Virus record (IMG/VR): IMGVR_UViG_3300045988_111231
Span: 1-37,026 of that record
Origin: a virus
Reading direction: 5' to 3' (one strand)
DNA length: 37,026 nucleotides
In this document: positions 11,231 through 30,458 of the stretch, piece after piece
Numbering within the stretch: the first letter of the stretch is position 1
Layout of the letters: each line of letters starts with the position of its first letter
Notes under the pieces: generated by a model
The model's input: the letters and a program-made list of their open reading frames with translations, nothing else
The model's database searches: none
What the model was told of the DNA's origin: nothing
Translations under genes and position numbers: made by a program

Positions 11231-12878
11231 CGCATATCTCGCAAGGGTGGATCGATATGCGGCGGGCGTCTTGTCCGGCGCGGTTCCATCATGCCGGATG
11301 CTGCGTGCGGCTTGTCAGAGGTACGAGGATGACAAGAGGCGGGATGATCTCTATTTTGACACGTCGAAATTCCTGCGTTTCGTCCGATGCGCCCAGACCT
11401 TGAAGCATTTTAAGGGGGAGTTCGCTGGGAAGTCCATAAGGCTGGAGGACTGGCAGCTCTTCGTGGCGGCTAATATTTTCGGTTGGTACCGTACCGCCAC
11501 AAAGCGCAGACGTTATCAGTATGCCGATGTCTATGTGCCGCGCAAGAATGGAAAGACGACATTCGCTGCGATCATAGCTCTCTACATGCTTCTTTTTGAC
11601 GGCGAGCCGGCCGCGGAGGTGTACGCCGCCGCCGTTGACAGGGAGCAGGCGAATATCTGCTTTGACACGGCCAAGGAACTGCTGCGCAACAGCGACTTAA
11701 CAACGCTCGTCGATATTTACCGGGGAAGCATCGTCAGGTCGCAGACCGCCTCTGCATTCAAGCCTTTGACAAAGGACACAAAGAACAAGGATGGACTCAA
11801 CCCGCAGGCCGCCATCTGTGACGAGCGGCACGCCTGGAAGACGAACGAGATCTATGATGTCATCAAGACCGGCATCGGATCAAGGCGGCAGCCGCTTGTG
11901 TTCTCCATCTCCACGGCCGGCGTGGACACCAGCTATCCGTATTTCCGCGACCTGGAGTTCCTCAGGGACGTGATGTCCGGGATTCAGGCAAAGGATAACC
12001 ACTTCATTATGCTCTTTGAGCCGGATGAGGGAGACCGGTGGAATGACCAGGAGGTCTGGCGCAAGGTCAACCCGAATTACGGCGTTTCGCTTTACCCCGA
12101 ATATATGGAGAATGAGTTCCAGGAGGCGAAAAAGAAGGGAGGCTCCACACTCGCCGCCTTCTGTACGAAGAACCTCAATATGTGGGTTGACGCTCCGGAA
12201 GTCTGGATAAGCGATGATGATGTGGCGGCCAATGGCAGAGGACTTGACCCGGCCGTCCTCCTGGGTCAGGAGTGCTATGTGGGGCTGGACTTGGCGTCAA
12301 AGAACGACATCACGGCCGCGGCCTTCTGGTTCCCGAGGTTCAAGGCCGTGCGTTATCTGTTCTGCGTCCCGGAGTCCAAGGTGGCGGAGATGTCCGACCG
12401 CGTGGATTATAGGCAGTGGAAGGAGCAGGGCTGGCTTGTCGTGACACCGGGCAAGACGCTTGACGAGGACTGGTATCTTCAGACCCTGATCTCGTGGATG
12501 GATCTGTATGACGTCAGGAAGATAGCGTATGACCCGTGGGCGATCTGGAACATACTGCCGAAGTTCGGGCGCTATTGCGACCGCCTGATGGAGTACCAGC
12601 AGAGCATCCGCTATATGTCCGTGCCGACGAAGTGGCTGGAGGCCGCCGTCCTGCGGCACGAGCTTGATTTTCTTGGCGATCCCGTGATCCGGTGGATGTT
12701 CCGCAACGTCGTGGTGTACCGCGACCCGAACGCAAACATCAAGCTTGACAAGGCGCGCTCGCGCAACAAGATCGACGGCGTTGTGGCGACTGTGGATGCC
12801 ATAGGCGGATGGCTCAACGCCACTTCCGGGCAGGAAGGCAAAATTATATATACAAACCACGATTTACGGGTTATATGA
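11220..12878 (+). CDS. terL: Terminase large subunit
   Basis: Walker A motif VPRKNGKTT. About 552 aa. First ATG is at 11220 (an in-frame GTG lies at 11211). Confidence 0.85.
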   Translation: MSSSAYLARVDRYAAGVLSGAVPSCRMLRAACQRYEDDKRRDDLYFDTSKFLRFVRCAQTLKHFKGEFAGKSIRLEDWQLFVAANIFGWYRTATKRRRYQYADVYVPRKNGKTTFAAIIALYMLLFDGEPAAEVYAAAVDREQANICFDTAKELLRNSDLTTLVDIYRGSIVRSQTASAFKPLTKDTKNKDGLNPQAAICDERHAWKTNEIYDVIKTGIGSRRQPLVFSISTAGVDTSYPYFRDLEFLRDVMSGIQAKDNHFIMLFEPDEGDRWNDQEVWRKVNPNYGVSLYPEYMENEFQEAKKKGGSTLAAFCTKNLNMWVDAPEVWISDDDVAANGRGLDPAVLLGQECYVGLDLASKNDITAAAFWFPRFKAVRYLFCVPESKVAEMSDRVDYRQWKEQGWLVVTPGKTLDEDWYLQTLISWMDLYDVRKIAYDPWAIWNILPKFGRYCDRLMEYQQSIRYMSVPTKWLEAAVLRHELDFLGDPVIRWMFRNVVVYRDPNANIKLDKARSRNKIDGVVATVDAIGGWLNATSGQEGKIIYTNHDLRVI

Positions 12879-13090: not shown

Positions 13091-13149
13091 GGCTCACTTT
13101 GGTAGAATTTTCCGCATTTTAACGCCGTCCGCTTGCTATCTTGCGGACG

Positions 13150-14364
13150 ATGTCGATATTCAGCAGCATATTCGGAGGTGCGAGGAGGCGGTCGGTGACC
13201 GTCGCCCCGACAGGCAGTGTCGTAGTTCCGCCGCCCGTGGACTATGGCCTTCCGGTCTGCAACTCGACGGCGATGAAGATAACGGCGTTCTATGCCGGAA
13301 TCCGACTTATCTCGGAGAATATAGCGTCCCTTCCGCGCTCGGTGCAGAGGAAGACAGACAAGGGGCTGGAGGCGGCGGACGATCATCCGGCTTACAGGCT
13401 CGTCGCGGTCAGACCTAACGACTACACCAACACTTTCGACTTCTGGAATTGCGTCACCACGTGGCTGGAGGGCTGGGGCAACGCCTATGCCGTCATCCGC
13501 CGTGGAGCGGACGGCAGCCCGGTGTCCATCCATCAGGTACACCCGTCCAACGTCACGGCCACGCTGTCCGGAGGGAAGAGGTGGTATCGCGTACTCATTC
13601 CCGACCCCGCCTTCTCGTGGCTGAACGGGACATACAGCGGTGATGACATGCTGCACTTCATGCTTCTGACCCTCGATGGGCTTACCGGCGTCAACCCCGT
13701 AATATACAACGCCATCGCTCTGGGGAAGAATCTTGCCACGGAGAAGTTCGGAAGCGAGTTCTACACGCGCAAGGGCAACATACGCGCGGTACTGGAGACT
13801 GACGGCAACCTTGGGGATGACGCTTACAACAAGTTTGTCGAGCATTTCAAGGCCGCGTCTGATGGCAATTTCGGCACTCCGCTTCTTGAATATGGTATAA
13901 AGTACAAGCAGTTGTCAGTCAGCCCGGTGGCCGCCCAGCTGATACAGAGCGAGATCCTCTCCATCCAGGACGTGGCGCGGATCCTGCTCATCCCGCCGCA
14001 CATGATAGCGGAACTCTCGCACGCCACCTTCAGCAACATCGAGCATCAGACCATCCAGTTCGTGGAGTACACCCTGCGGCCTATCATCAAGAGGCTGGAG
14101 GTGGAGTTGAGGACAAAGATGTTCTTTGAGGACGAGGTCGGACGTTATGATGTGGAGTTCGGCCTTGGCGGCCTGTTGAGGGGGGACACCGCCGCCCGGT
14201 CAAACTACTATCACAACGCCATCCTTGACGGATACATGTCGAGAAACGAGGTGAGGGAGCTTGAGGGACTGCGGCACAAGGACGGGCTTGACGACATGCT
14301 TTATCCTCTCAATTCCGGAGTGGTGGGCAAGGAGAATGATGAAAACACACAAGACAATGGATAA
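13150..14364 (+). CDS. Portal protein (HK97 family)
   Basis: About 404 aa, downstream of TerL, followed by protease and capsid genes. Confidence 0.8.
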   Translation: MSIFSSIFGGARRRSVTVAPTGSVVVPPPVDYGLPVCNSTAMKITAFYAGIRLISENIASLPRSVQRKTDKGLEAADDHPAYRLVAVRPNDYTNTFDFWNCVTTWLEGWGNAYAVIRRGADGSPVSIHQVHPSNVTATLSGGKRWYRVLIPDPAFSWLNGTYSGDDMLHFMLLTLDGLTGVNPVIYNAIALGKNLATEKFGSEFYTRKGNIRAVLETDGNLGDDAYNKFVEHFKAASDGNFGTPLLEYGIKYKQLSVSPVAAQLIQSEILSIQDVARILLIPPHMIAELSHATFSNIEHQTIQFVEYTLRPIIKRLEVELRTKMFFEDEVGRYDVEFGLGGLLRGDTAARSNYYHNAILDGYMSRNEVRELEGLRHKDGLDDMLYPLNSGVVGKENDENTQDNG

Positions 14365-15004
14365 GATATTGTTCAGAACCGCCGGCGATGCGGTTGTGGA
14401 GGCCAAGAGCAAGGATTCGAGGCGCATCACGTTCATCGCTTCGGATTCGACCAGGGATTCTCATGGCACGGTCCTCAATCAAGAAGGCTGGTCGCTTGAC
14501 CGTTTCAACAAGAACGGCATCATAGGCTATCAGCACAAGGTCTACGGCGGATGGGACGACACCGAGAACCCCGACAACGTCATAGGCAAGGGAAAAGCCT
14601 ACACAAAGGACGGAAAGCTGTATGTCGATGTGGACTTTGAGCCTAAGGAGATAAACGAGCTGGCCGACAAGATATACAATAAGCTTTTGTTTGGCAGCCT
14701 TAAGGCTGTCTCGGTCGGATTCCTGCCGAAGGGAAAGGGCAGCTGGGGCAAGGGCGAGGAGGCTCTTGACGGAAAAAACCCGACCTATTACTATGCCGGA
14801 CAGGAGTTGCTCGAGGTCTCAGTGGTTAATATCCCTGCGAACCCGAACGCTCTCAAGAAGTCCATCGAGGCGCAGGAGGAGGAGATGGCCGAACTGCGGC
14901 GGATGGATGACGTTGAGGAGGTGTCAAAGGATGACATGGAGACTATGGCGTTGGCGGTTGAGGTCGAAAGGCAATTAACTATAGCGGAGGCAGCTCTGCT
15001 TTAA
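14336..15004 (+). CDS. Prohead maturation protease (HK97 family)
   Basis: Motif FIASDSTRDSHGTVL and its position between portal and capsid genes. Confidence 0.75.
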   Translation: MMKTHKTMDKILFRTAGDAVVEAKSKDSRRITFIASDSTRDSHGTVLNQEGWSLDRFNKNGIIGYQHKVYGGWDDTENPDNVIGKGKAYTKDGKLYVDVDFEPKEINELADKIYNKLLFGSLKAVSVGFLPKGKGSWGKGEEALDGKNPTYYYAGQELLEVSVVNIPANPNALKKSIEAQEEEMAELRRMDDVEEVSKDDMETMALAVEVERQLTIAEAALL

Positions 15005-15018
15005 TATATTTTTTAATC

Positions 15019-16269
15019 ATGAGAAAAATAGCGGAAATCAGAAGGGATCTCGCGGCCAAGGTCGCGGAGGTCAAGGGCATCCAGAACAGCCCTGAGAACG
15101 CCGATGCCTTGAAGAAGGGTGTCGCGGAGGTCAAGGCGCTGCTGCTGGAGCTGGAACAGGCGGAGACTGTGGAGGCCGCCGCGCAGCAGGCTGCCGACAG
15201 GGAGCTTGACAGAAGGCAGAGGGTGGCCGGAAGGCCGTTCTCGTTGGTGCGCTACATCAATGGCATCATCAACCGAAATCTTTCAGGTCTCGAGAAAGAG
15301 GTGGACGAGATGGGTGCCCAGGAGTATGAGCGCCTTGGCTTGGAGCGGCGCGGGAATGTCATCCCGTCCGCCTATCTCCGTGCGGCCAGCGGTCAGAACT
15401 ACACGACCGCCGCTGACGGAGGCAACCTCACAGAGGAGGGAGAGAGGCGCTATCTTGACATCCTGAAGGACAAGCTGGTGGTGGCTCGTTTGGGCGCGAC
15501 TGTGCTGACTGATCTTGTGGGCACATTCACGGCGATCAGCTCGTCTGCCATTCAGGCATCGTGGGAAGGCGAGGCAACCAAGACAGATGTCAAGAAGACG
15601 TCTTATACCAAGATGTCGATGACGCCGCACAGATCAGCAGTTTCGGTGGCTATAACCAAGGATCTGCTCCGCCAGACCTCCTTTGATGTCGAGAAGGATC
15701 TTCTGGATAAGATTACCTCCGCGCATGCCAATCTTTTGGAGAAGGCCGCCATCTCCGGCACAGGGAAGGACAATCAGCCTACCGGCATTCTGAACACCTC
15801 CGGAATCGGAAGTGTGTCGATGGGAGCGAACGGCGGCGCCATCGACTGGAAGCACATAGTCGAGCTGGAGACTGAGGTTAACTCAAAGAACGCCAACCGT
15901 GGAAGTCTGGCATACCTTTCAAACGCAAAGGTTAACGGCGCTTTGAAGGTTACAGAGATGGCGTCGGGAACTGCGCGCTTCCTTCTGTCCAACGAGGCCC
16001 CGAAGATCCTTAACGGCTATCCGTTTGACTGGACGAATCTCGTGCCGGCGGATCTTACCAAAGGTACGGCGGCCACCAAGTGTTCGGCTCTGATCTTCGG
16101 AAACTTCCAGGATCTCTACATAGGACAATGGGGTGGAATTGACATTGTTGTCGACCCATACACCGGCGCGCGCACCGGCGAGATTTACACGACGCTGAAC
16201 GCGTGGAACGATGTCAAGGTTGTCGAGCCTAAGAGCTTCGCGGCCATCGTGGACATTACGACTGACTAA
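15019..16269 (+). CDS. Major capsid protein (HK97 fold)
   Basis: 416 aa with an N-terminal coiled-coil delta domain. Gene order supports the call. Confidence 0.8.
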   Translation: MRKIAEIRRDLAAKVAEVKGIQNSPENADALKKGVAEVKALLLELEQAETVEAAAQQAADRELDRRQRVAGRPFSLVRYINGIINRNLSGLEKEVDEMGAQEYERLGLERRGNVIPSAYLRAASGQNYTTAADGGNLTEEGERRYLDILKDKLVVARLGATVLTDLVGTFTAISSSAIQASWEGEATKTDVKKTSYTKMSMTPHRSAVSVAITKDLLRQTSFDVEKDLLDKITSAHANLLEKAAISGTGKDNQPTGILNTSGIGSVSMGANGGAIDWKHIVELETEVNSKNANRGSLAYLSNAKVNGALKVTEMASGTARFLLSNEAPKILNGYPFDWTNLVPADLTKGTAATKCSALIFGNFQDLYIGQWGGIDIVVDPYTGARTGEIYTTLNAWNDVKVVEPKSFAAIVDITTD

Positions 16270-17949: not shown

Positions 17950-18357
17950 ATGGTAGAAGGTTACAACATAGCGTTCAAGCTGAACAACAAGACTTTGGCC
18001 GGACGCACTCAGGATGATCTCACGATCACCCCGACCACAAAGGAGAGCATCACAAAGGATGACCAGGGCAACAAGCAGTCAATGGTCATCGGGCAGGAGG
18101 TCACTTTCGCGGCACAGGGAATGGTTGAGGTATCCACGACAGGAGCCACGACCAAGTTGACGCGTGACGATTTAATAGAGATGGCCTTGAAGACCGGTTC
18201 GGCGGCTGTCATCCCGTTCGTCTATTCCTGTGCCGGCGGCAAGTCCTATTCAGGCAACTGTGTCTGCACCGGCTACACCGAGAGTTCCAATTCAGAGGAC
18301 ACCGCGAGCTGGACGATGAACTTCAAGGTGTCGGGAGCGATGACCCCAGAGTCGTAG
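17950..18357 (+). CDS. Major tail protein
   Basis: 135 aa, immediately upstream of the chaperone pair and the tape measure gene. Confidence 0.65.
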   Translation: MVEGYNIAFKLNNKTLAGRTQDDLTITPTTKESITKDDQGNKQSMVIGQEVTFAAQGMVEVSTTGATTKLTRDDLIEMALKTGSAAVIPFVYSCAGGKSYSGNCVCTGYTESSNSEDTASWTMNFKVSGAMTPES

Positions 18358-19043: not shown

Positions 19044-20861
19044 ATGGCGAGCAAAAAACTGAAAGTGAGTGTTGACGCGGACGCCTCCGGGTTCAAGAAG
19101 GAGATGGCTGTGGCCAAGAAGTCAACGCAGGAGTTCTCGAAGACGGTGGGCGATATGTCCGCAGCCGTGGAGGACTCACTCGGCATACCTATCGGCGCCA
19201 TTGCGGAGGTCGGTTCTAAACTCAAGAACGTGGCGACCCTTTTCAAGGGGGCTTCCGCACAGGGAGAGACGGCTTTCCAGAAGATCGCTTTGGGCGCGGG
19301 AGTGGCAGCTGGGGCAATCGCCGGAATCGGCATTACGGGTCTTATAGCGTCCTTTAAGATACTTAATGACGAGGCGCAGCGCTACCGCAACACGGTTGAG
19401 GGGACCGCGCAGACGTTGCAGACGGATGCCTGGAAAGGAACTTACGCGCAATCGGTGAGCGATGCCACGGGGCTCGGGAAAGTATATGCCGGCTATCAGG
19501 ATAAGATGTCGAAGTATTGGACTATGACGAAGGGCTTCGGTGCTGCAGCTTTGTCCGGACTTATCGAGGGCGGCACCCGTGGGTTGATAGCTAATGTCGC
19601 GAGCGTCACGACGGCGACGGTAGCGGCAACCAAGGTTGCTGACAAGGCCGCGGTCTATGCGAAGGAGATCTTCGACACGACGGAGGCGATGAAGGACAAG
19701 TCGATCGAGTGGAAGGATAACCTTGCGCAGGTCGCCGAATTGATGCTTATTGCTTCCGATACTTCCAAGTCCACGAAGGAGCGGCAGGAGGCCGTCACGA
19801 AGGCTATAGATCTTCAGAAGAGCACGACCGCCGAGCAGGTGGAGATGCAGAAGAAAGTTGCCGACAACATCAAGGCGCAGAACGACCTTGCGAGCAGCTC
19901 TGTAGAGGATATGGACCGGCAGCGCAATGCCTACGCCGCCGTGAATGATCTGCAAAGGGAATGTAATCAGAAGTTGAGGAGGATGGTCAGCCTCCAGAAC
20001 ACCATACAGCAGAGCGTTTCCGCCACCGGGCAGAAGTGGCGGGATGGGATAAACAAGGCCGTCGAGGCCGGCATGACGGAGATCGCCAAGTTCAACGCCG
20101 AGATGGACAAGGCGCTGGAGATGCGCGACAAGATGGCCATGGACAACATTGCCGCTCCGCTGAAGTCAATGTCCGCGAGCCTTACAGGGCGCGCCGACAA
20201 CGGCAAGGGGCTGACAGGGGGTATCAACATCGACGAGGAGGCCTTGAAGGGGCTCCAGCAGCTCACGCAGTTCGACACGTCCGCCGTTGACGGGCTTCTC
20301 GCCAAGATCGACCCATCAAAACTCTCGGAGAGTTTCAAGGGGTATTACAACTTCCTCGATGAGATGATCAAGGCCACGGATGATGCCAACAAGGCACTGA
20401 ACGACGCCATTGTGGGCGGCATATCGGACTCCTTCCAGTACCTGGCGAACTGCGTGGCGGGCCTTGACGAGCTGAGTGGCGCGGGGATGATGAACGCCCT
20501 GCTTTCGCCTTTGGCCGAGGCGGCGATCAAGATGGGAGAGATAATGGTTTCAGCCGGACTCGCCTCCGAGGCGTTCAAGTCGATGCTCACGAACCCTTAC
20601 ACGGCCATAGCCGCCGGTGCCGCCCTCATAGCGGTGGGAGCCGCCGCCAAGGCCGGACTCCAGGCGGCGGTAAACAGCGCCACCGGAACGTCCTACGTGG
20701 CGAGCTCCGTGGCAAGTTCTGGATATTCCAACAACAGCTCGAACGACAGGAGCTGGGAGAGGGAGATGACCCTGCACGTGACCGGCACATTACAGGCGGA
20801 CGGCTCCAAGCTCGTGGCCGTGCTTAACAACGAGGCTAACAGAAAAAGATACACGACTTGA
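19044..20861 (+). CDS. Tape measure protein
   Basis: 605 aa, Ala/Gly-rich helical, with hydrophobic C-terminal segments. Gene order supports the call. Confidence 0.8.
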   Translation: MASKKLKVSVDADASGFKKEMAVAKKSTQEFSKTVGDMSAAVEDSLGIPIGAIAEVGSKLKNVATLFKGASAQGETAFQKIALGAGVAAGAIAGIGITGLIASFKILNDEAQRYRNTVEGTAQTLQTDAWKGTYAQSVSDATGLGKVYAGYQDKMSKYWTMTKGFGAAALSGLIEGGTRGLIANVASVTTATVAATKVADKAAVYAKEIFDTTEAMKDKSIEWKDNLAQVAELMLIASDTSKSTKERQEAVTKAIDLQKSTTAEQVEMQKKVADNIKAQNDLASSSVEDMDRQRNAYAAVNDLQRECNQKLRRMVSLQNTIQQSVSATGQKWRDGINKAVEAGMTEIAKFNAEMDKALEMRDKMAMDNIAAPLKSMSASLTGRADNGKGLTGGINIDEEALKGLQQLTQFDTSAVDGLLAKIDPSKLSESFKGYYNFLDEMIKATDDANKALNDAIVGGISDSFQYLANCVAGLDELSGAGMMNALLSPLAEAAIKMGEIMVSAGLASEAFKSMLTNPYTAIAAGAALIAVGAAAKAGLQAAVNSATGTSYVASSVASSGYSNNSSNDRSWEREMTLHVTGTLQADGSKLVAVLNNEANRKRYTT

Positions 20862-20863
20862 TT

Positions 20864-23617
20864 ATGGCTTACGGGGAATTATACAGGTTTGTCTTTGACG
20901 CGGCCAACGGCCCGGAGGTCACCATCTCCGTTGCGAAGAAGGATTATACCGGTGAGGTTTACCGCCGAGCCGTTGGCGGCTCGGCTACGCTGAGGCGCGA
21001 GCGCTCCGGATGTATCCTCGGATCGTCGCTCGCGTGGTCGGCGGAGTGCCTTTCGGAGGATGAGTTCGCCGAACTCTACACCTCCGACCCGACACTTTAC
21101 CGCGTATCGCTGCGCTTCTCCGGCACGACCGTGTGGCAGGGATTTATAACTCCTGAACTCTACTCTTCGCCATGGGTGGACACGCCGTATGACGTGACGC
21201 TTACGGCGACGGACAACCTCGCCGAGCTGAAGAACTCGACTTTCAAGGCAACGGGAGACATCCAGGTAGAATGGTTGATCAGGGATTTACTTGAGATCAC
21301 GGGGATCTCCATATCGTCCGCGCAGGATATGGAGATGGCATACATAAGCTCAATGAAAGGTGACAGAAAGCACATCAGCCTCCTGACCGTCAACGTTGAC
21401 CATCTCGCAGGGGAGACATGCTATGACGTGCTTAACTCGGTTCTGGAGTCCCTCCATGCAGTTTTATATCTTGACTACGCGGCCGAGAGTTGGGTGGTCA
21501 TGCGCGAGACCGATGTAAGCGGCGCCAATGTGGGCTTCCTGACATTCGGCAAACTTGACGGACTGTCAGATCTCGCCGCCAACGGAAGCCTGGCGATGGA
21601 GATCGTTCCGGCAAGGAAGGAGCCGACGGTGAGCGAGGAGATCCATGCCGCCAATGTTGCAAAGGCATTCAACTCGTCGAATGTCCAAACGACAGGAGGC
21701 ACGCCGAAGTGGGAGGAATCTGACTACGGCGCGGCGGTCAGGCTGACGACAGTGCCACCAAGCCAGCTGTCCGGCACCCCTGAGAGCATAGACAGCGTGG
21801 CAAGCGTGTTGTTCACGTCACTCGCCGCCGGAAGACGTTATACGCTGACCTTCAAGGCTCGCAACACGGGGTTCTTCGCTGGAAAGACACTGCTGCAATG
21901 GGGCTTGATCATAACCGGCCAAAACGGCTCCGTTTCACGGGCAATATATTTCGACACCAACGGCGGATACTCGGCATCCTATCCAGGTTCTGACTACCCG
22001 AACGATACGGAGCTGACTCCCGAGATTGCGGAGTATTCCGTCAGTTTTGTCATTCCGCAGAAAGTTGGCTCGGCGGGGTTCACCCCGTCGCGGGGGAGCT
22101 TCAGCGCGAGATGCATGCGGAAGGGTGATGGATCAAGCGTCTGGACGGCGGATGCCTGGCTTGCGGATGTCAGGCTGCAAGTGGCTGACTTCCCGGACGG
22201 TCTCTCAACACGTGTCATCCTCGACAACAATGCCCGGACGGAGGCGGACGGCGTTGCGCTCGAGTTCGGAAACGATATAGCGTCAGGAAGGCAGAATGTC
22301 ATTCGGGAGATGAAGTTCATCTCCGACGCGATAGTGACAGAGCAGGACTTCAACACCTTCATGGCTATTGATAACGCCCTATCGGTGGCTCTGCCGAGGT
22401 TGAGGCTTTCGGGAGTTATGTTCTTTAAAAAGCCAACGTGGCGGCTGCCGAAATTCGTAAGGACTACCCATGTGTCCGCGGACAACCTTGACTACATCGT
22501 CGAGGAGTATAACTTCGACCTTGTGACCGGCAACATCGACATCTCGATGATCAGCCTTCCGGCGGCGGCATTGGCTTACAAGGAGATCAAGACAACAAGC
22601 GATAAACGCATCCCTTCCGGCTCGTCGACATCGGGGGCAGCATCTGGAACACAGGGGCCGCAGGGAGAGCCTGGCCCCAAGGGAGACAAAGGCGAAAAGG
22701 GCGACAAGGGAGACACGGGGCCACAGGGAGAGGTAGGCGCTACGGGGCCGCAGGGTGTCAGGGGAGCGATCGGCCCGCAAGGGCCACAAGGACCTAAGGG
22801 CGACCCCGGAGCGGCGGCGGGGTTCGCCACTCCGACCGCGGAAGCCTTCTTCATCGCCGGGGGCACCCCCACGGCGGAGGTCACGGCCTTGGGGCCGGAC
22901 ACGGCCAAGAAATTCGCCTTCAAGTTTGGAATTCCGAAAACCTCGGAGGTCATCGACAGCCAGGCAAGGCTCCGCGTCAGACCTGTTCTGAAAATCTTCC
23001 GGGGATATACAGAGGATGATGTCGAGATAAAAAACCTATCTATCAGACATCCGGCTCTGTCATCAGATAAATACGAGGCTGTGTTGATGGTCTACAGAAG
23101 GATGAACAAGCGGAGGCGTGGTGTCCACGGCTCCCTTAACAAGCCGGCGAGGATTGCCAGGAAAGGCTGGTTCGTCGCTCTCGGCGACAAGGATGTCACC
23201 GACCATGCAGCGTTCACGGTGCAAGGTTTCGGCAGTGGTCAAGGTGTCGTCATGAGGCTCGCGGAGCTCCGCGACTTCATCGTCAAAAGGTTCATGGAGG
23301 ACTCTGGCCACACGAAGGCGGAGCTGTGGACAAGGGACTACGCCCAGTGGGGGGCGGAGAGCAACGTGAGAAGGGGATTTGGCAACGCATACAAGGCGAG
23401 AAAGAAGTTCGGAATAGCTGTTAGGTATGTTAATCCGGCATTCACCGCGCTCGTCGACCAGACCAAGCCGCTGTCGCCGACGACCATGGAGCTGACCAAC
23501 ACTGCCGGTGAAAAGGTGCCGCGCTATATCTACTCGGACGTCGCACCGCTGACTGTCGAGTTGCAGAACAAGGGCGCGGCGCAGCGGGCCAGCATGTGGT
23601 TCGGCGTGTCCGGATAA
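20864..23617 (+). CDS. Large distal tail / host-interaction protein with collagen-like repeat
   Basis: 917 aa. Contains 17 uninterrupted G-X-Y triplets encoded at 22655-22807. Confidence 0.75.
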   Translation: MAYGELYRFVFDAANGPEVTISVAKKDYTGEVYRRAVGGSATLRRERSGCILGSSLAWSAECLSEDEFAELYTSDPTLYRVSLRFSGTTVWQGFITPELYSSPWVDTPYDVTLTATDNLAELKNSTFKATGDIQVEWLIRDLLEITGISISSAQDMEMAYISSMKGDRKHISLLTVNVDHLAGETCYDVLNSVLESLHAVLYLDYAAESWVVMRETDVSGANVGFLTFGKLDGLSDLAANGSLAMEIVPARKEPTVSEEIHAANVAKAFNSSNVQTTGGTPKWEESDYGAAVRLTTVPPSQLSGTPESIDSVASVLFTSLAAGRRYTLTFKARNTGFFAGKTLLQWGLIITGQNGSVSRAIYFDTNGGYSASYPGSDYPNDTELTPEIAEYSVSFVIPQKVGSAGFTPSRGSFSARCMRKGDGSSVWTADAWLADVRLQVADFPDGLSTRVILDNNARTEADGVALEFGNDIASGRQNVIREMKFISDAIVTEQDFNTFMAIDNALSVALPRLRLSGVMFFKKPTWRLPKFVRTTHVSADNLDYIVEEYNFDLVTGNIDISMISLPAAALAYKEIKTTSDKRIPSGSSTSGAASGTQGPQGEPGPKGDKGEKGDKGDTGPQGEVGATGPQGVRGAIGPQGPQGPKGDPGAAAGFATPTAEAFFIAGGTPTAEVTALGPDTAKKFAFKFGIPKTSEVIDSQARLRVRPVLKIFRGYTEDDVEIKNLSIRHPALSSDKYEAVLMVYRRMNKRRRGVHGSLNKPARIARKGWFVALGDKDVTDHAAFTVQGFGSGQGVVMRLAELRDFIVKRFMEDSGHTKAELWTRDYAQWGAESNVRRGFGNAYKARKKFGIAVRYVNPAFTALVDQTKPLSPTTMELTNTAGEKVPRYIYSDVAPLTVELQNKGAAQRASMWFGVSG

Positions 23618-23740: not shown

Positions 23741-25321
23741 ATGAAAGAATGTGATTGCGACAAAAAACTGCCTGGTATCCGCATGGTAAAAGGCAATGAC
23801 CTTACGGTTGTAGCTCTGGCGTCCGTCTATGACGCGGACAGCGGCGCATATATTGCGTTCAACCTCGGCGTTTGTACGGGTGTCACGATGAGGCTCGTCC
23901 GCTCTTTTAACAGGATCGAGGCCAAAAATATCTCTGTCGACGGCAATGAGGTATCTGCCACATTCGCCGGCACGACACTCACAACAGGCACGTACGGTGT
24001 GGAGATTTTGTTTAGTAAGGATGGGCAAGACGGCCGGATCTTCGAGAATGATCTCTTCGCCATCGTAACTGACAGTGGTGACGCGAGCATAGACACTGCC
24101 GCCGGAGGCGGTAACGGGCAGGGGTACAACATAACGGTTGACATCAAGTCGAGGACACTCCGTATCGGGCAGGTCTCCGGCATAACGGACTACAACCTGC
24201 TTGAGAACCGCCCGTCGATAGGCGGAGTGACACTGGAGGGAAACAAGAGGCCTTCCGACCTCGGGATGTACTCGAAGGAGGAGGCCGACAAGCGCGTCCA
24301 GGGGATGCTGGACGGCAAGGTGGACAAGGAGCCAGGCAAGGGCCTCTCCGCGAACGACCTCACGGACGAGAGGGCGAGGAAGGTTGACATGCTGGCGAAG
24401 GACGGCCGCGCCAACGAGCACCTGAACGGCGCCGGGACATACTCCCGACCGGTGAGGCAGGGCTACGGCGTGTCAGTCGAGGATGACAACACGGTGTCCG
24501 TGGACCCGCAGGTCATAGCCCGCCAGTCGGACGTGGCAAACGTGGCCGCCGACCTCGCCGCGCAGAAGGCCAAGGAGCAGGGCGACATCGACAGGGCGAA
24601 CGCCGCCATATCCAAGGAGGAGACCGACCGAAAGGCCGCCGTGGCCGTGCTCCAGTCGCTCATCGACATCCTGAACTCGGACTCCAACGTTGACGGCTCC
24701 GTGAAGAAGACCGTGGCCGACGCCATAGCCAGGGTGGTGGCGGGCGCGCCGGAGGACCTCGACACCCTGAAGGAGATAGCGGACTACATCGCCTCAGACA
24801 AGACGGGGGCGGCGCAGATGGCCGCGGCAATATCCCAACTTCAGACGCTGACGAAGGGACACACGTCAGACATAGCGGGGAACGCGGCCGGGGTGGCCGC
24901 CAACGCGTCGGACATCACTAAGCTTAAGAAGTACAACGACGGGGCGGAGGCGAGGATAAAGTCCCTGGAGGACGGCAAGGCCGCCACGGACTACGTGGAC
25001 GGCAAGAACCTCACGGTGGCCGAGGCCATAGTGAGCCTCGCCGCCCGTCTGGACGCGCTGGAGGGGAGCCGCGGCCTCCTCGGTGACGCGACCGCCGGGA
25101 CGGTCGACGTGAGGGGGCTGACGAGGTGCCGCTATCCCCTCGTGATGCTCGGACACGGCGTCCCGGCCGAGGCGAACGTGCCGGACAACCTCCCGGACGG
25201 ACTCCCGTGGGACGGGGTGCCGGCGTTCGTGGGGCAGAACTACATCAACCTCGACGCGGCGTCGGGTGGGCTGTACTACGCGGCCGGGAATGAAAACGTA
25301 AGTGACTGGAAACAGGCTTAA
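23741..25321 (+). CDS. Tail fibre protein
   Basis: 526 aa. Carries a YNLLENRPSIGGVTLEGNKRPSDLG motif typical of phage fibres and a long coiled-coil region. Confidence 0.7.
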   Translation: MKECDCDKKLPGIRMVKGNDLTVVALASVYDADSGAYIAFNLGVCTGVTMRLVRSFNRIEAKNISVDGNEVSATFAGTTLTTGTYGVEILFSKDGQDGRIFENDLFAIVTDSGDASIDTAAGGGNGQGYNITVDIKSRTLRIGQVSGITDYNLLENRPSIGGVTLEGNKRPSDLGMYSKEEADKRVQGMLDGKVDKEPGKGLSANDLTDERARKVDMLAKDGRANEHLNGAGTYSRPVRQGYGVSVEDDNTVSVDPQVIARQSDVANVAADLAAQKAKEQGDIDRANAAISKEETDRKAAVAVLQSLIDILNSDSNVDGSVKKTVADAIARVVAGAPEDLDTLKEIADYIASDKTGAAQMAAAISQLQTLTKGHTSDIAGNAAGVAANASDITKLKKYNDGAEARIKSLEDGKAATDYVDGKNLTVAEAIVSLAARLDALEGSRGLLGDATAGTVDVRGLTRCRYPLVMLGHGVPAEANVPDNLPDGLPWDGVPAFVGQNYINLDAASGGLYYAAGNENVSDWKQA

Positions 25322-25338
25322 AAAAAGGAGGATACATC

Positions 25339-26730
25339 ATGATAAAGTATTACGACACAGAGGAGGCCTACAAGGCCGACACGGGGAAGGGCGCGGACGA
25401 GAGCCAGGTCTCCCTCATAAAGGCGGGCAACATATGCAGGTACGACGGCAGGAACGTGGTCGTGGGGCTGAGGTCGGCGAGGACGGGGAGCGTGGCCTAC
25501 CTTGACGGCTCGCGCGCGCTGCACTTCGCCGCGCCCGGGACGTTCAGGGCCGACGGACTCCCCGAGGTAGGCGGGGTCATCGGCGTGGTCGTCATCGGCG
25601 TGGACCACCAGGATTTCCGCGGCGTGGTCGCGGTGATGAGCAAGACGTTCGCCGCGGCTCCGATGCTGGAGCGGTGGTTCGTCAGGCTCTCCGGCTACAC
25701 CCTTGACGGGACCGACAGGACGGGGACGCTGAGCGTGTGGGAGGCCTCCGACAGCTGGGCGGCAGCCCACGACTACGCCGTCGGCTACAACGCGGACAGC
25801 GCCCAGGCGCTCGCCTCGCAGCTCAACGCCTACTTCAAGGCGAACGAGCCGTTCATGGCGCAGGACTGGGTGGCGGAGGCCGACGGGGACGGGAACGTCA
25901 CCCTGCACTACGCCTATATCAACTACCGCCAGACCTCGAACGCGGCGAAAGACGGATTCGCGCTTGCCCAGGCGACCGCCCCCGGGTGGGCCGACACGAC
26001 GAAGATGCTCCGCAGGAACGGAAGGAGGATCGGCGAGGGCACGATAACGAACTGGCCGAGGACACTGGCGTATTTCCGCGGCGACAACTCCAGCAAGACA
26101 TACAACCCCGCGTCGGACGTGACGACGAAGAAGATCTCTTATCCGATATGCCTGCCCGGCTACCTCGGCACGTCGGAGTACCAGAGCGACCACTGCTCGT
26201 ACCTGCGCGGAGTGTACGGCGAGGGCGAGGAGGGCTGGCTGAAGTTCATGGAGAGCTTTCTGCCAGTCCGTCCGTCGGAGTACGGCATCTTCGACGCGAG
26301 CAGGTACGGCGCTGCGAAGCGCAATACCTATTATCTCGCCGGAATCAAGTATGCCGGTCAGGACGGCGTCGAGAAGTACGCGAGTCCGGCCGCGAGGCTG
26401 GCCGCGAACCTCGGGTACGACCACGAGCTTCTGAAGCAGGGCGAGTGGGTGCTGCCGGACATCGACCTCTTGTTCGGCCTTGTCGGGCAACTCAAGTACC
26501 CTACGACGAACGACCGTGACGCCGACCCGGTGAACTCCGCCCTCAAGGCTATAGGGGCTCCGGCGCTGGGAAACAGCTCCAGCGTCTGGAGTTGCTCCCG
26601 GTTCAACCCGTTCAGCGGGTGGATCGCGGGCGGCGGCAGCGGTTACGCGGGCGGCGGCATCCTGGCGTACAGCGGATACGTGGCGGCTCCCCTCGTGCTT
26701 TTGGACACCGCCGCCGGAGGCGCGGCTTAG
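25339..26730 (+). CDS. DGR target protein (receptor-binding tail protein with C-terminal variable region)
   Basis: VR occupies the last approximately 50 codons. A WVLPDIDLL segment upstream resembles DUF1566/C-type-lectin-fold DGR targets. ATG preceded by AAGGAGGA. Confidence 0.8.
   Translation: MIKYYDTEEAYKADTGKGADESQVSLIKAGNICRYDGRNVVVGLRSARTGSVAYLDGSRALHFAAPGTFRADGLPEVGGVIGVVVIGVDHQDFRGVVAVMSKTFAAAPMLERWFVRLSGYTLDGTDRTGTLSVWEASDSWAAAHDYAVGYNADSAQALASQLNAYFKANEPFMAQDWVAEADGDGNVTLHYAYINYRQTSNAAKDGFALAQATAPGWADTTKMLRRNGRRIGEGTITNWPRTLAYFRGDNSSKTYNPASDVTTKKISYPICLPGYLGTSEYQSDHCSYLRGVYGEGEEGWLKFMESFLPVRPSEYGIFDASRYGAAKRNTYYLAGIKYAGQDGVEKYASPAARLAANLGYDHELLKQGEWVLPDIDLLFGLVGQLKYPTTNDRDADPVNSALKAIGAPALGNSSSVWSCSRFNPFSGWIAGGGSGYAGGGILAYSGYVAAPLVLLDTAAGGAA
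26575..26697 (+). repeat. DGR variable repeat (VR)
   Basis: Matches TR 27313-27432. Over the first 90 nt, the 14 differences all fall at TR adenines. Confidence 0.85.
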
Positions 26731-26740
26731 GCTTTATCCT

Positions 26741-26766
26741 GGGCGGCGGCGTCCCCGCGGCCGCCC
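26741..26766 (+). promoter_or_regulatory. GC-rich hairpin downstream of VR (candidate DGR target-recognition structure)
   Basis: GGGCGGC-G-GCG TCCC CGC-G-GCCGCCC, starting 11 nt after the stop codon. Confidence 0.5.
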
Positions 26767-26789
26767 GCAAAACTAAACAACATCGTGTT

Positions 26790-27230
26790 ATGCCAAGATC
26801 GGAATACTACGAGCCGGCCCTGCTGCCGGGCGAGAAGGAGCAGCCGCAGATAATCATCGACGCGGTGGAGCTGTACGACCTACTTGTCAGGGCGGAGATG
26901 ATGATGACCAAGGCTGACCGCATCCGTTACGGGAACCGCGCGGTCGCGCAGATACAGGACGTCATCAAGGAGTTCATGCTCGCCTACGACTTCGAGGAGG
27001 ACAGGCGGATCCATCTGAAGAGGCTCTGCGCCAACATGGCGGTCTTCATGTGGACGGTCAGGCTGATAGGCGGCAGGAACATCATAAACGTCAGGGACGC
27101 GAGGTCCGGCGAGACCCCCGACCAGATCAAGGTGAGGATCATGGAGAGCCTGGCGAGGCTGGATGAGGGCGTGACGCGATGGAGAAAATCGATAACGAAG
27201 AGCAGAAACAAGGGCATGACCGGCATATAG
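26790..27230 (+). CDS. avd: Accessory variability determinant (Avd-like)
   Basis: 146-aa predicted helical basic protein in the canonical slot between the target gene and TR. Confidence 0.6.
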   Translation: MPRSEYYEPALLPGEKEQPQIIIDAVELYDLLVRAEMMMTKADRIRYGNRAVAQIQDVIKEFMLAYDFEEDRRIHLKRLCANMAVFMWTVRLIGGRNIINVRDARSGETPDQIKVRIMESLARLDEGVTRWRKSITKSRNKGMTGI

Positions 27231-27312
27231 TGATGATCCGGCAGTCTCTGGAATCATAAAGGAGACCCTCCTTCCGCGCTCGCGGCAGGTAAGAGCAAGG
27301 CATGGGTCTCGG

Positions 27313-27432
27313 AGCTCCAGCGTCTGGAGTTGCTCCCGGTACAACCCGAACAACGGGTGGATCGCGAACGGCAACAACGGTTACGCGAACGGCAACAACC
27401 TGAACAACAGGAACGTGGCGGCTCCCCTCGTG
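27313..27432 (+). repeat. DGR template repeat (TR)
   Basis: 120 nt, noncoding position. In the VR frame it contains 12 AAC codons. Confidence 0.85.
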
Positions 27433-27450
27433 AATTATGATTGAAGGAAT

Positions 27451-28860
27451 ATGGTTTTGAGAACACTCATAGACGACTATCTGGGATGCCGCGCCAACAA
27501 GCGCAGGAGTCCCGACAGCGTGCATTTCGAGCTGCACTGGGAGAGAGACCTCGCGCGGCTGCTTGGGGATTTCAATGACCGCACCCTTGTTTCTTTTTTA
27601 TATGCCTTCGTCAATCCCAACCCGAGAGACAGGGAGGTCATAGCGTGTCTGATGCAGCTTAAGATATTGCAGCACCATTTCGATCTGAGGGTGCGCCCGC
27701 TCGTCGAGGAGGGACTGACGGGCAGCACGTTCAACAACCGCGTGGGCTACGGCTGCGACAGGGCCATACTGAAGACCCGCGACGACATCCGTAAAGTCTC
27801 GAAGAATTACACGGGGGATTGCTACATAATAAAGAGAGACATCAAGTCGTACTTTCCGTCAACGGATCTGGATCGCTCCTACGAGAACTATCGCGCCCTC
27901 ATAGAAGAGCGTATCGAAGACGGCGGCGAGAAGGACGACTTGTTGTATATCCTGCATAGGGTCAATTATGCCTATCCGCAGGAACACGCGCGTCTGAAGT
28001 CTCCGCGATTCAGATGGGACGGCATCATAACTGACGGCAAGAGCGTGGTTTTCAACAACGACCCGAAACGCGGAGCCTGCCTCGGCAACCAGTTCTGGCA
28101 GGTTGAGAAGAACTACGCACTGGCGGAGTTTGACAGGTTCCAGGTGGACACCTGCGGACTTCATTACACAAGATTTGTGGATGATATGGTCTGGGTAGTG
28201 GATAACCTGCAGGCCGGGCTTGCCCACGTAGCCACCAGCGAAAAGATGCTGATAGAGGAGTTCGGCTATCAGATGCACCCGCGCAAGAGGTATCAGCAGC
28301 ACTACAGCAAGGGCGTCACTTTTCTGGGTGCGAAAATAAAGTTCGGCAGAATCTATGCGAGCGACAGGGTCGTGAGGAACTGCAAGATGGCCATCCGGAA
28401 ATGGAACAGGCTCGCATATCCGTCAATGCTCGGCCATTTCCTTGACAGCATTAACAGCTATCTGGGAAACTTCAAGCACAAGAACGCCTATGGCATCATC
28501 AGAGACCTTGTGGATGAGGTCGGTCCGAAATGGGAGAAATACTGCCATTACAACGATGACCGCAGATGTTTCGAGGCGAATGAGGGATACCGGCACAGGG
28601 AACTGCTTGAACGGAAATATCATTTTAAACTTAACAAGGATAAGCACAGACATTATGACAAGACAGGAAATCGAGGACAGAAGGAATGTCCTGCACTCCC
28701 TCGTCAGGGACAGGGAGGCGAAGCTGAAGGAGACGGACTACGTGGCGGCCAAGATCGCCGAGGGGGCGGCCACGAAGGAGGAGTACGCCGCCGTCCTCTC
28801 GCAGAGGAGGACGTGGCGAGGAGAGATCAACGAGGCCGAGGCCGGGGTGGCCGCGCTTGA
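27451..28860 (+). CDS. DGR reverse transcriptase
   Basis: RT motifs IIKRDIKSYFPS, LGNQFWQ, YTRFVDDMV, MHPRK and TFLGAKI. Starts 18 nt after TR. The last approximately 65 codons overlap the next ORF and look non-native. Confidence 0.85.
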   Translation: MVLRTLIDDYLGCRANKRRSPDSVHFELHWERDLARLLGDFNDRTLVSFLYAFVNPNPRDREVIACLMQLKILQHHFDLRVRPLVEEGLTGSTFNNRVGYGCDRAILKTRDDIRKVSKNYTGDCYIIKRDIKSYFPSTDLDRSYENYRALIEERIEDGGEKDDLLYILHRVNYAYPQEHARLKSPRFRWDGIITDGKSVVFNNDPKRGACLGNQFWQVEKNYALAEFDRFQVDTCGLHYTRFVDDMVWVVDNLQAGLAHVATSEKMLIEEFGYQMHPRKRYQQHYSKGVTFLGAKIKFGRIYASDRVVRNCKMAIRKWNRLAYPSMLGHFLDSINSYLGNFKHKNAYGIIRDLVDEVGPKWEKYCHYNDDRRCFEANEGYRHRELLERKYHFKLNKDKHRHYDKTGNRGQKECPALPRQGQGGEAEGDGLRGGQDRRGGGHEGGVRRRPLAEEDVARRDQRGRGRGGRA

Positions 28861-28921
28861 CGCGGAGGTCCCGGAGGATGAGGACGCGGTTTCGGCCGAA
28901 GCGACGGAGGGACGGCCATGA
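28655..28921 (+). CDS. Small acidic coiled-coil protein
   Basis: 88 aa with strong GC3 bias. Overlaps the RT 3' end by 206 nt in another frame. Confidence 0.55.
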   Translation: MTRQEIEDRRNVLHSLVRDREAKLKETDYVAAKIAEGAATKEEYAAVLSQRRTWRGEINEAEAGVAALDAEVPEDEDAVSAEATEGRP

Positions 28922-29520
28922 GGGTGGTCTCGCTCAACTGCCGCGTCTGGACAAGGGACACGGACAGGATGTCGCCGCGCTGGTGGCGCAGGCGGATGGA
29001 GAGGATAAGGAGGTTCATAACCGACGAGGCCCCGGATGTCCTCTGCCTTCAGGAGCTGTCGTTCCCGGCCAACCTCTGGATTCCGAAAGGCTACCGCCGC
29101 GTCGGCCTTTCCGCGTCCCACCATATCTATGTCCGCAGGGGGATCAAGGCGCGTCCGCTGTGGTTCGCGATACACCACAATGCGGCGGAGGTGGAAGGCG
29201 TGCGCGTCATCAATGTCCACGGCACATGGCGGAAGTGCATGGGGAAGGTGTGGGAGAGGCTCCGGAGGGAGGCGGAGAAGCGGCCGTGCCTGATGGCCGG
29301 GGACTTCAACCATTCCCCGGCGGCGGTCGCGGGGAGGCTCGGCAAGGAGGTCGAGGACATCGGCGACGTCACGTTCAGGCACAACTTCACGGGGTCGCCC
29401 GGAAGCCTGGACCACTGCGCCGCCTTCGGCCTGTCCGTGGTGTCGTGCGGGGTGGTCAACGACGGGTTCATGATGTCCGACCACCTGCCGCTCGTGATCG
29501 AGATAAAAAGACAGACATAG
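28918..29520 (+). CDS. Endonuclease/exonuclease/phosphatase (EEP; ExoIII/APE/DNase I-like) family nuclease
   Basis: Catalytic motif set VVSLN, LCLQEL, GDFNH and SDHLPL. ATGA overlap with the upstream ORF. Confidence 0.7.
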   Translation: MRVVSLNCRVWTRDTDRMSPRWWRRRMERIRRFITDEAPDVLCLQELSFPANLWIPKGYRRVGLSASHHIYVRRGIKARPLWFAIHHNAAEVEGVRVINVHGTWRKCMGKVWERLRREAEKRPCLMAGDFNHSPAAVAGRLGKEVEDIGDVTFRHNFTGSPGSLDHCAAFGLSVVSCGVVNDGFMMSDHLPLVIEIKRQT

Positions 29521-29524
29521 CGTG

Positions 29525-30064
29525 ATGGACGGTTTCAACGCCCACATCCTCTCGGACGAGGCTTCCGCGGGGAGTGTCGTGGTCGGCACGGGCATATCGG
29601 CCACATTGTTGTTGTTTTTCCAGCAGTCGTTCGAGAGGATGCTACCATACCTCGTCATCGCCGCCGTGGTCATCCTGATCGACCTCGTGTTCGGCATCAG
29701 GGCCGCCCGGCGCAAGGGCGACCGTATCAGGATAAGCCGTGCAATACGCCGCACGATAGGAAAGGCGGTGGAGTACTTCTGCTGGGCGGTGCTGGCCTCC
29801 AGCCTCGCCGTGGCGACGGGCTACACCATCATCGAGACGGGGCTGATGCTCGTGGTCATCGGCGTGGAGCTGATAAGCATCGCGCAGAACTGGTACTTCT
29901 GGAAGTTCGGCCACAAGGCGACGGTGAAGGTGGACGCGGCCAAGGTCATCGAGGCCGTGGTCGAGGCAAGGACGGGAGCGAACATCGAGGGGGCGATAAC
30001 GATAAGCAAAGCGGAGGAATCCGGAAACAAAGAGGAGGTCAAGATCGATGGCAAGGAAGATTAA
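29525..30064 (+). CDS. Holin-like membrane protein
   Basis: Several TM helices and a charged C-terminus. Lies immediately upstream of, and overlaps, the amidase gene. Confidence 0.6.
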   Translation: MDGFNAHILSDEASAGSVVVGTGISATLLLFFQQSFERMLPYLVIAAVVILIDLVFGIRAARRKGDRIRISRAIRRTIGKAVEYFCWAVLASSLAVATGYTIIETGLMLVVIGVELISIAQNWYFWKFGHKATVKVDAAKVIEAVVEARTGANIEGAITISKAEESGNKEEVKIDGKED

Positions 30065-30458
30065 CTACATCATAGTGCACTGCACCGCCACACCGGAGGG
30101 CAGGTGGGTGACGAACGAGGAGATAACGAGGTGGCACAAGGCACGCGGGTTCCGCACCATCGGCTACCATTATGTCGTCTACCTTGACGGCACGGTGCAC
30201 GCCGGGAGGCCGGAGAACGAGATCGGGGCGCACTGCCAGGGGCGCAACGCGGACAGCGTGGGCGTGTGCTACGTGGGAGGCCTCGACAAGTCCGGCAAGG
30301 CCAAGGACACGAGGACGCTCGCGCAGAGGGAGGCTCTCGCGAAGCTCCTGAAGGAACTGAAGGCGAGGTACCCGAACGCGGAGATAAGAGGCCACAGGGA
30401 CTTCGCCAGGAAGGCGTGCCCGTGCTTCGACGCCACAAGTGAGTACAAGGCTCTGTAA
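30048..30458 (+). CDS. N-acetylmuramoyl-L-alanine amidase (Amidase_2/PGRP type endolysin)
   Basis: Motifs IIVHCTAT, GYHYVV, GVCYVGG, GHRD and CPCFD. Confidence 0.85.
   Translation: MARKINYIIVHCTATPEGRWVTNEEITRWHKARGFRTIGYHYVVYLDGTVHAGRPENEIGAHCQGRNADSVGVCYVGGLDKSGKAKDTRTLAQREALAKLLKELKARYPNAEIRGHRDFARKACPCFDATSEYKAL

Follow-up and report, generated by a model that had tools for sequence, protein, structure and literature searches.

The window analysed here is the whole 37,026-nt stretch of viral DNA that makes up positions 1 to 37,026 of the IMG/VR record IMGVR_UViG_3300045988_111231. Downstream of two tail-fibre genes it carries a diversity-generating retroelement (DGR), whose parts follow one another on the same strand: a protein-coding target gene with a variable repeat (VR) in frame at its 3' end, a small gene in the position of avd, a template repeat (TR) and a gene for a reverse transcriptase (RT). 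The coordinates are collected in Table 1. A first-pass annotation, made from the letters alone, had likened this arrangement to that of the Bordetella phage BPP-1, whose mtd-avd-TR-brt cassette is the prototype. We confirmed the order target-avd-TR-RT and found it also in Bacuni_F1, which with Bacuni_F2 and Bacuni_F4 belongs to a set of Bacteroides uniformis phages that hold the closest described DGRs (Hedzet et al. 2021, PMC8143477; MT635598).

A repeat search aligned 26575-26664 with 27313-27402 (90 nt, 84% identity) and 26669-26697 with 27404-27432, and so recovered the same VR and TR that the first-pass annotation had delimited. Over the first 90 aligned nucleotides, where the TR has 24 adenines, all 14 mismatches fall at a TR adenine (hypergeometric P = 2e-10), a count that agrees with the earlier one. 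When the complete repeats were aligned with gaps, 18 A-to-N substitutions were found, all at TR adenines, and 18 of the 19 substitutions were adenine-directed, which bears out the earlier reading of the pair as a product of adenine mutagenesis. Depending on where the gap is placed, 12 or 13 of these are A-to-G and 6 or 5 are A-to-T. The 12 AAC codons noticed before are in frame. Each of the 31 TR adenines is the first or second base of its codon, and none of them can give rise to a stop codon by mutation. With 19 variable codons, the theoretical repertoire comprises up to 1.6e18 protein variants.

The two repeats have identical ends. The identity at the 5' end covers 28 nt, exactly as first described, and that at the 3' end covers 20 nt, ACGTGGCGGCTCCCCTCGTG, within which the 18-mer of the first-pass annotation is contained. 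Directly after the identical 3' end the sequences part, with CTTTTG following the VR and AATTAT following the TR, and a junction of CTTTT(G/A) against AATTAT is kept in all related loci. This suggests that the GC-rich shared 3' end is an element like the initiation of mutagenic homing (IMH) site, with a putative role in homing. We found no second VR in the window when the TR was searched with each A treated as N, as the first-pass annotation had also concluded.

Since the first-pass annotation had proposed to look for variation confined to the TR-adenine positions of the VR, we approximated this check with L024 and L025, near-identical prophages from two other assemblies (other samples). The TR is identical in the window, L024 and L025. 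The VRs of L024 and L025 are both 120 nt long and differ from the TR at 17 and 13 positions, every one of them an adenine. Between the window and these two prophages the VR shows 21-22 differences, against 0-1 in the 1,236 nt of the target gene upstream of it. For L024 alone, the differences from the window number 22 in the 123 nt of the VR and 4 in the 1,428 nt of the RT region, and there are none in the 1,236 nt of target upstream of the VR, the 615 nt from the VR end to the TR start, or the 120 nt of the TR. A comparison of L024 with L025 gives 21 differences; 20 lie in the VR, each of them at a TR adenine (P = 3e-15). Outside the VR, the 3.5-kb cassette differs at only 0-5 positions among the three. 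At the protein level, the target P0122 differs from that of the window at 13 residues, all within the VR.

The same pattern was found further afield. We surveyed 18 related IMG/VR loci with RT identities of 54-89%. In 17 of the 17 relatives with a full TR/VR pair the layout is the same and the mismatches lie almost only at adenines; the TR is about 120 nt long and ends 18-20 nt before the RT, and the VR lies about 735 nt upstream. Another locus, L015, is truncated inside the VR, and its 34 aligned nucleotides show four A-to-G changes. L001, L003, L004 and L005 share one TR sequence, yet their VRs differ at 14-20 positions, and between L005 and L017 there are 4 differences in 600 upstream nucleotides versus 19 in the 120 nt of the VR. 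These comparisons show recent and repeated mutagenic homing in this lineage, with directional transfer from TR to VR.

Two further observations concern single copies. In L018 (6001-6598) the RT gene carries a large internal deletion, yet the repeats still show 14 mismatches, at adenines only; L018 is a recently inactivated DGR. Insertions or deletions of one codon in the VR were seen in P0130, P0142, P0156, P0170, P0173 and P0239, three of them at the same spot after a conserved Leu. The one-codon change in the VR of the window lies within 26664-26678, and the sister prophages with the identical TR are without these 3 nt. Such changes of length may be due to slippage on the AAC repeats during cDNA synthesis.

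Table 1. Features of the DGR and of the phage genome that carries it, with positions in the window
Feature	Position	Strand	Description
DGR	25339-28653		
Target gene	25339-26730	+	463 aa; N-terminal ~350 aa without recognisable domain, C-terminal ~100 aa DUF1566/Lcl_C-like
VR	26575-26697	+	123 nt; encodes target residues 413-453 of 463
GC-rich 3' end of VR	26678-26697	+	IMH-like; same as TR 3' end
GC-rich hairpin	26741-26766	+	GGGCGGCGGCG-TCCC-CGCGGCCGCCC; between target stop and avd start
Avd-like gene	26790-27230	+	146 aa; predicted basic four-helix bundle (AlphaFold2, Foldseek, hhalign)
Long-range RNA duplex	27252-27259 (5' arm), 27435-27442 (3' arm)	+	predicted to join the TR flanks, closing the TR into a loop
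Structured RNA element of the avd-TR spacer	27262-27310	+	outer helix 27262-27268/27304-27310; inner hairpin 27270-27277/27282-27289
TR	27313-27432	+	120 nt; 31 adenines; 12 AAC codons
RT	27451-28653	+	conserved part, ~400 aa; RVT_1, phrog_1423, 8ub7_A, Brt
Stem-loop inside RT 5' coding region	27473-27521	+	conserved; candidate spacer-RNA element
Second stem-loop inside RT 5' coding region	27530-27560	+	~9 bp with bulges; compensatory changes in 5/9 pairs
Large terminase	11211-12878		
Portal	13141-14364		
Protease	14261-15004		
Major capsid	15019-16269		
Major tail protein	17950-18357		
Tail-fibre genes, two	20858-23617 and 23741-25321		
Coiled-coil gene	28655-28921		88 aa
EEP-family nuclease	28918-29520		
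Holin	29522-30064		
Amidase	30048-30458		
Integrase	35609-36817	-	

The target protein itself gave no match in Pfam, PHROGs, NCBIfam or PDB sequence searches, and tblastn found none in 50,697 phage records. An exhaustive HMMER search gathered 204 representatives of the target family at 50% identity, nearly all of them 400-470 aa long, with the C-terminal consensus W.LP...E ... WS..R.....AW...G..G......P..L. Seven of 102 family members match Pfam Lcl_C (PF07603, DUF1566) below threshold, the best with an E-value of 1.5e-5; P0396, for example, reaches 22.1 bits against a cutoff of 34.9 over its C-terminal residues 355-443. The window target has no Lcl_C match and does not reach the Pfam gathering threshold. 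When the target-family profile A5 was compared by hhalign with the target of Bacuni_F1, which passes the Pfam Lcl_C threshold, the two aligned with 96.7% probability (E = 4.7e-10), window residues 354-455 corresponding to 157-251. Because this is the VR-bearing Lcl_C domain of Bacuni_F1, the variable domain of the window target is, as far as profile comparison goes, a divergent DUF1566/Lcl_C-type domain. The proteins differ in that the Bacuni_F1 target has 253 aa and scores above the Lcl_C threshold, whereas that of the window has 463 aa and no match.

The first-pass annotation had called this protein a tail receptor-binding protein. That a VR-bearing target is present holds, and its DUF1566 homology covers the C-terminal 100 aa only; the case for receptor binding is weak. 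The gene begins 17 nt past the second tail-fibre gene and ahead of the lysis genes, and tail structure proteins make up most of the DGR targets of viruses (Roux et al. 2021, PMC8144416). In the fibre encoded at 23741-25321, the C-terminal ~105 aa (about 25000-25321) are kept with the DGR cassette even where the rest of the fibre is unrelated, which suggests that this segment is a docking site for the diversified protein. From the gene position, the co-travelling fibre C-terminus and the general rule for viral DGR targets, we infer that the target is a tail protein that binds the host receptor.

The strongest competitor to this assignment accepts the DGR and takes the target for a tail-associated adhesin directed at non-host ligands (mucus, glycans) or for some other accessory protein. 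The N-terminal 350 aa are without similarity to annotated tail or receptor-binding families, and for the homologous domain in Bacuni_F1 the annotation goes no further than 'putative fimbrial tip protein, DUF1566'. Moreover, a preprint (bioRxiv 10.1101/2024.11.15.621889) describes DUF1566 variable domains that are diversified on Bacteroides pilus adhesins. The close apposition of the target to the fibre gene, the fibre C-terminus that travels with the cassette and the predominance of tail structure proteins among viral targets speak against it, and we consider it unlikely, if worth keeping in view.

We then turn to the enzyme. The RT matches Pfam RVT_1 with 33.5 bits and phrog_1423 with E = 6.5e-30, and in NCBIfam it gives sub-threshold matches to group II, retron and Drt models. 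A profile built from 40 family members and compared with PDB found as its best match 8ub7_A, the Bordetella DGR RT (E = 4e-14); other RT classes (retron, group II) followed at E = 8e-5 or worse. In hhalign the RT aligned with Brt at 97.3% probability over 286 columns. By profile comparison, the RT belongs to the DGR lineage. The start at 27451, 18 nt past the TR, and the catalytic motif FVDD at 28174-28185 were both located correctly in the first pass; V243, D244 and D245 are invariant across the family. Among DGR RTs, the YxDD motif has F for Y in 14% and V as the second residue in 33% (PMC3521204). The family comprises at least 262 RT clusters.

The RT open reading frame reads on to 28860, and conserved RT sequence ends near residue 400. 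The final 206 nt (28654-28860) overlap the next gene (28655-28921), which lies in another frame and encodes an acidic coiled-coil protein. We considered a functional C-terminal tail (68 aa, basic) and rejected it, because the RTs of most relatives stop at about 412-423 aa and the tail is an alternative frame of the next gene. This Arg/Gly-rich tail (pI 10.6) is probably read-through without a conserved role.

Between the target and the TR lies the helical, basic open reading frame that the first-pass annotation had placed in the avd position, and our results sustain that placement: the protein is predicted to be all-helical, has an isoelectric point (pI) of 9.3 and folds in silico into an Avd-like bundle. 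The AlphaFold2 (AF2) model has four helices and a predicted local distance difference test (pLDDT) score of 86. The top Foldseek matches of this model are 2gsc, chains B-E of 8ub7 (Avd), 4dwl (Avd) and 2rld, with a probability of 1.0 and TM-scores of 0.70-0.78 on target; 8ub7 is labelled in the Foldseek output as a DGR ribonucleoprotein. In hhalign the protein aligned with the bAvd of Bacuni_F1 (85%, E = 6.5e-6). We conclude with moderate confidence that the 146-aa protein is a remote homologue of Avd.

The 82-nt spacer between avd and the TR is far more conserved than the adjoining genes, and it contains a structured RNA element that ends 2 nt ahead of the TR. Compensatory changes were found in 9 of its 14 pairs, and 94.5% of cells are paired. 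In 500 shuffles none reached the observed values on four of five measures, and 6 did so on further pair types. A covariance model of the element, R1, has exactly one match per family DGR, at 96-111 bits, and none in Bacuni_F1 or BPP-1. The long-range duplex that joins the flanks of the TR is paired in 94.6% of cells, with compensatory changes in 3 of 8 pairs; none of 500 shuffles reached its covariation score or its percentage of paired cells, and 29 of 500 reached the count of pairs changed on both sides. In the two stem-loops inside the RT gene 10 of 20 pairs are compensatory, a count to be read with the reservation that the same alignment served to derive the structure and that coding constraint is a confounder. 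An upstream-downstream duplex and stem-loops are conserved in DGRs according to Handa et al. (bioRxiv 10.1101/2023.10.23.563531), and the covarying helices found here match them.

The first-pass annotation had expected the RNA that primes cDNA synthesis to overlap the 5' end of the RT gene. Since conserved stem-loops lie there, the overlap is plausible; the TR:primer duplex that it would involve was not found. Separately, we noticed that UUGUUCCUUUUUUAUAUG in the RT gene (27592-27601), which is almost invariant in the family, could form base pairs with AUAAAGGAGA, a purine-rich stretch of the spacer (27256-27265). This pairing has 10 bp and two covarying pairs, and may be due to chance, given the U-run. 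An Rfam search returned nothing relevant, and a scan for promoters and terminators was uninformative.

Downstream of the VR, the GC-rich hairpin at 26741-26766 is predicted in 12 of 13 related loci, with stem sequences that differ by compensatory changes. It lies 43 nt past the VR, has a 4-nt loop, TCCC on the sense strand, and is followed by a U-run in some relatives. The homing hairpin or cruciform of Guo et al. has a GC-rich stem of 7-10 bp and a 4-nt GRNA loop, and lies 4-34 bp from the VR (PMC3240598). The hairpin of the window is a candidate for such an element; because of the U-run in some relatives, a role as a terminator is equally possible. A shorter hairpin 10-14 nt past the VR (CGCC-GGA-GGCG) was set aside, being by eye too short and too variable to call.

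Compared with BPP-1, the locus shares the gene order, a tail gene with the VR at its 3' end, a GC-rich 3' end common to both repeats, a homologous RT, a basic four-helix-bundle accessory protein, and structured RNA on both sides of the TR with flanks that pair together. It differs in the placement of the RNA. In BPP-1 the TR lies directly against the stop codon of avd and is separated from brt by 144 nt of non-coding spacer, whereas the window has an 82-nt structured spacer before the TR and only 18 nt between TR and RT; therefore its downstream RNA elements lie in RT coding sequence. In addition, the BPP-1 Avd is without sequence-level similarity to that of the window, and the BPP-1 target is Mtd-like whereas that of the window is DUF1566-like. 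BPP-1 and the other phage DGRs surveyed have their homing hairpin 4-34 bp past the VR with a GRNA loop (PMC3240598), against 43 nt and TCCC for the candidate in the window.

Among deposited phages, the RTs closest to that of the window are those of the Bacuni phages, with 33-35% identity over 85% of the query. Bacuni_F1 resembles the window in its run of tail genes, DUF1566-type target, Avd, TR, RT, lysis genes and integrase, in its homologous variable domain and related Avd (the hhalign results given above), and in an insertion of ~40-50 aa that both RTs share relative to Brt. Its differences are a canonical IGNLFSQ in the RT, where the window's family has LGNQFWQ, an Avd that scores 124 bits on Pfam bAvd, where the 146-aa protein of the window scores none, and the lack of a match to the spacer RNA model R1. 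The gut DGR clades of Roux et al. (2021, PMC8144416) are similar in that they are viral, belong to phages predicted to infect gut Bacteroidetes and mostly have tail structure proteins as targets; the window differs in that its Avd and target are without the Pfam annotations on which such surveys rely.

The cassette sits in an otherwise conventional phage genome. Searches of family libraries identified terminase, portal, capsid, tail, fibre, holin, amidase and integrase genes (Table 1). Over the cassette the window is identical to a 53.7-kb metagenome scaffold, and blastn with the cassette found no match in 50,697 phage records. Relatives were found on contigs as long as 216 kb and in a Bacteroidales metagenome-assembled genome (goat omasum), and the window is therefore taken for a Bacteroidales prophage. 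We conclude that it is a temperate siphovirus-like tailed phage or prophage of rumen or gut Bacteroidales. The larger fibre protein (919 aa, 20858-23617) has a short collagen-like segment at residues ~580-660; the Pfam Collagen match belongs to the fibre homologue in L024 and L025.

The first-pass annotation had described the RT gene as A/T-rich and taken this as a sign that the cassette was acquired as a module. The RT does have 52.5% GC against 57.2% for the window, which places it in the lowest 8% of 1,200-nt windows, with neighbours at 59-66%. At third codon positions, however, the RT has the same GC content (GC3, 70%) as the genes for terminase, capsid and fibres. Target and avd, unlike the RT, are rich in GC, and with a cassette so uneven in composition there is no compositional argument for acquisition as one module; we found that claim unconvincing. 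L001 and L003 have an identical TR (5864-5983) and near-identical RTs, and 18% of nucleotides differ between them in avd (interval 5247-5863) and in the target upstream of the VR. This mosaicism implies recombination breakpoints inside the cassette. The EEP-family nuclease next to the DGR was entertained as a core homing endonuclease, by comparison with the APE domain of LINE elements, and rejected since it occurs in only 7 of 17 related loci. Phages of the L003 type are without it (their order is RT, small coiled-coil gene, holin, M15 peptidase), and their VRs are still diversified under an identical TR.

Taken together, the data make us highly confident that the locus is a DGR that works by the canonical mechanism. 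Several observations weigh against this reading. The VR is 3 nt longer than the TR and contains a single change that is not at an adenine (TR G to VR A). A covariation scan of the TR 3' end against the 300 nt downstream gave no convincing conserved TR:primer duplex. In the RT, motif 4 reads LGNQFWQ, with WQ in place of the canonical SQ and a Trp that hardly varies within the family. The Avd-like protein has no match to Pfam bAvd (PF22296) or 23S_rRNA_IVP (PF05635) even at E <= 10, its Foldseek E-values are only 0.01-0.1, and its hhalign comparison with the BPP-1 Avd was negative. An AF2 model of the full target, built on a shallow alignment (83-100% identity), reached a pLDDT of 35.

With respect to motif 4, the corresponding sequence is IGSLTSQ in Brt and IGNLFSQ in Bacuni_F1; the window's version keeps L, G and Q and exchanges Ser for Trp. 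The DiGReF survey found (I/V/L)GxxxSQ in 90% of DGR RTs and catalogued SP, SH, NQ, PA, AQ and VQ as variants of SQ; WQ is absent from that list, and the SQ dipeptide is not treated there as strictly required (PMC3521204). The locus is a complete DGR, evidently active and divergent but otherwise ordinary, and it is set apart by quantitative divergence, by WQ in motif 4 and by where its flanking RNA elements lie.

The same features could be read more boldly. The lineage might represent a distinct design of the DGR ribonucleoprotein, one that may prime, stop or bias cDNA synthesis unlike the Bordetella prototype. The features in question are the Trp for the near-universal Ser of SQ at the template/dNTP pocket, an Avd beyond the reach of family hidden Markov models, a dedicated non-coding scaffold upstream of the TR and downstream RNA elements inside RT coding sequence. 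If this were true, the recurrent one-codon changes of VR length could stem from that difference. We regard such a design as improbable.

Slightly less probable still is that the family is active and this copy is a stalled or decaying relic, with a VR that drifts as ordinary DNA. The 3-nt insertion and the G-to-A change are not products of adenine mutagenesis and would both be erased by the next round of homing, and L018 shows that the TR/VR signature can outlast an internal deletion of the RT gene. In the window, however, the RT, Avd and target reading frames are intact, and the TR and all flanking RNA elements match, without a single difference, those of L024 and L025, in which the VR is cleanly diversified. 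A single indel and a single substitution amount to very little drift, and the one-codon differences in several family members may be a by-product of homing and not decay. The first-pass annotation implied two different lengths for VR and TR and mentioned neither the 3-nt indel nor the G-to-A change. We conclude that the insertion and the G-to-A change are ordinary or imprecise events since or during the last rewriting of the VR.

That the repeats are ordinary paralogues shaped by recombination or gene conversion, next to an unrelated retron, group II intron or defence RT, would fit the weak RVT_1 score and the sub-threshold NCBIfam matches of the RT and is scarcely credible, given an adenine-only mismatch pattern that recurs in every relative and an RT profile whose match to the DGR RT surpasses those to retron or group II enzymes by nine orders of magnitude. 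Ordinary paralogous evolution was what the first-pass annotation had named as evidence that would overturn its view, and the outcome spoke for an active DGR: the TR is invariant and the VR variable between near-identical genomes, and variation that is confined to the VR and linked to adenines under an invariant TR therefore rules such evolution out.

We propose the following course of events, in which the steps of cDNA priming and integration are modelled on BPP-1 and the roles of the individual RNA elements are putative. The transcript over the avd-TR spacer, the TR and the start of the RT gene would fold into a scaffold, made up of the element that abuts the 5' end of the TR, the long-range duplex of the TR flanks and the stem-loops in the RT 5' coding region. 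The RT, with the Avd-like four-helix-bundle protein, would copy the TR into cDNA and misincorporate opposite template adenines. This cDNA would then replace the VR at the 3' end of the gene at 25339-26730, with the GC-rich 3' end common to both repeats as its guide, perhaps aided by the GC-rich hairpin downstream. In this way the 19 codons of a DUF1566/C-type-lectin-like ligand-binding domain would be rewritten, with no stop possible. Because the target directly follows the tail-fibre genes, the phage would probably benefit through virions with altered receptor specificity.

Our data establish no new principle, since tail-protein DGRs in phages of gut Bacteroidetes are well documented. They provide a very clean natural example, in which three near-identical prophages differ almost only at the TR-adenine positions of the VR. 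They also define a family, which comprises the RT clusters counted above and, at 50% identity, over 200 representatives of the target. Pfam misses both the Avd and the variable domain of this family, and domain-based DGR surveys will leave the two unannotated. Finally, the RNA elements supported by covariation and the natural Ser-to-Trp variant of the SQ motif offer material for studies of adenine mutagenesis and of cis-priming.

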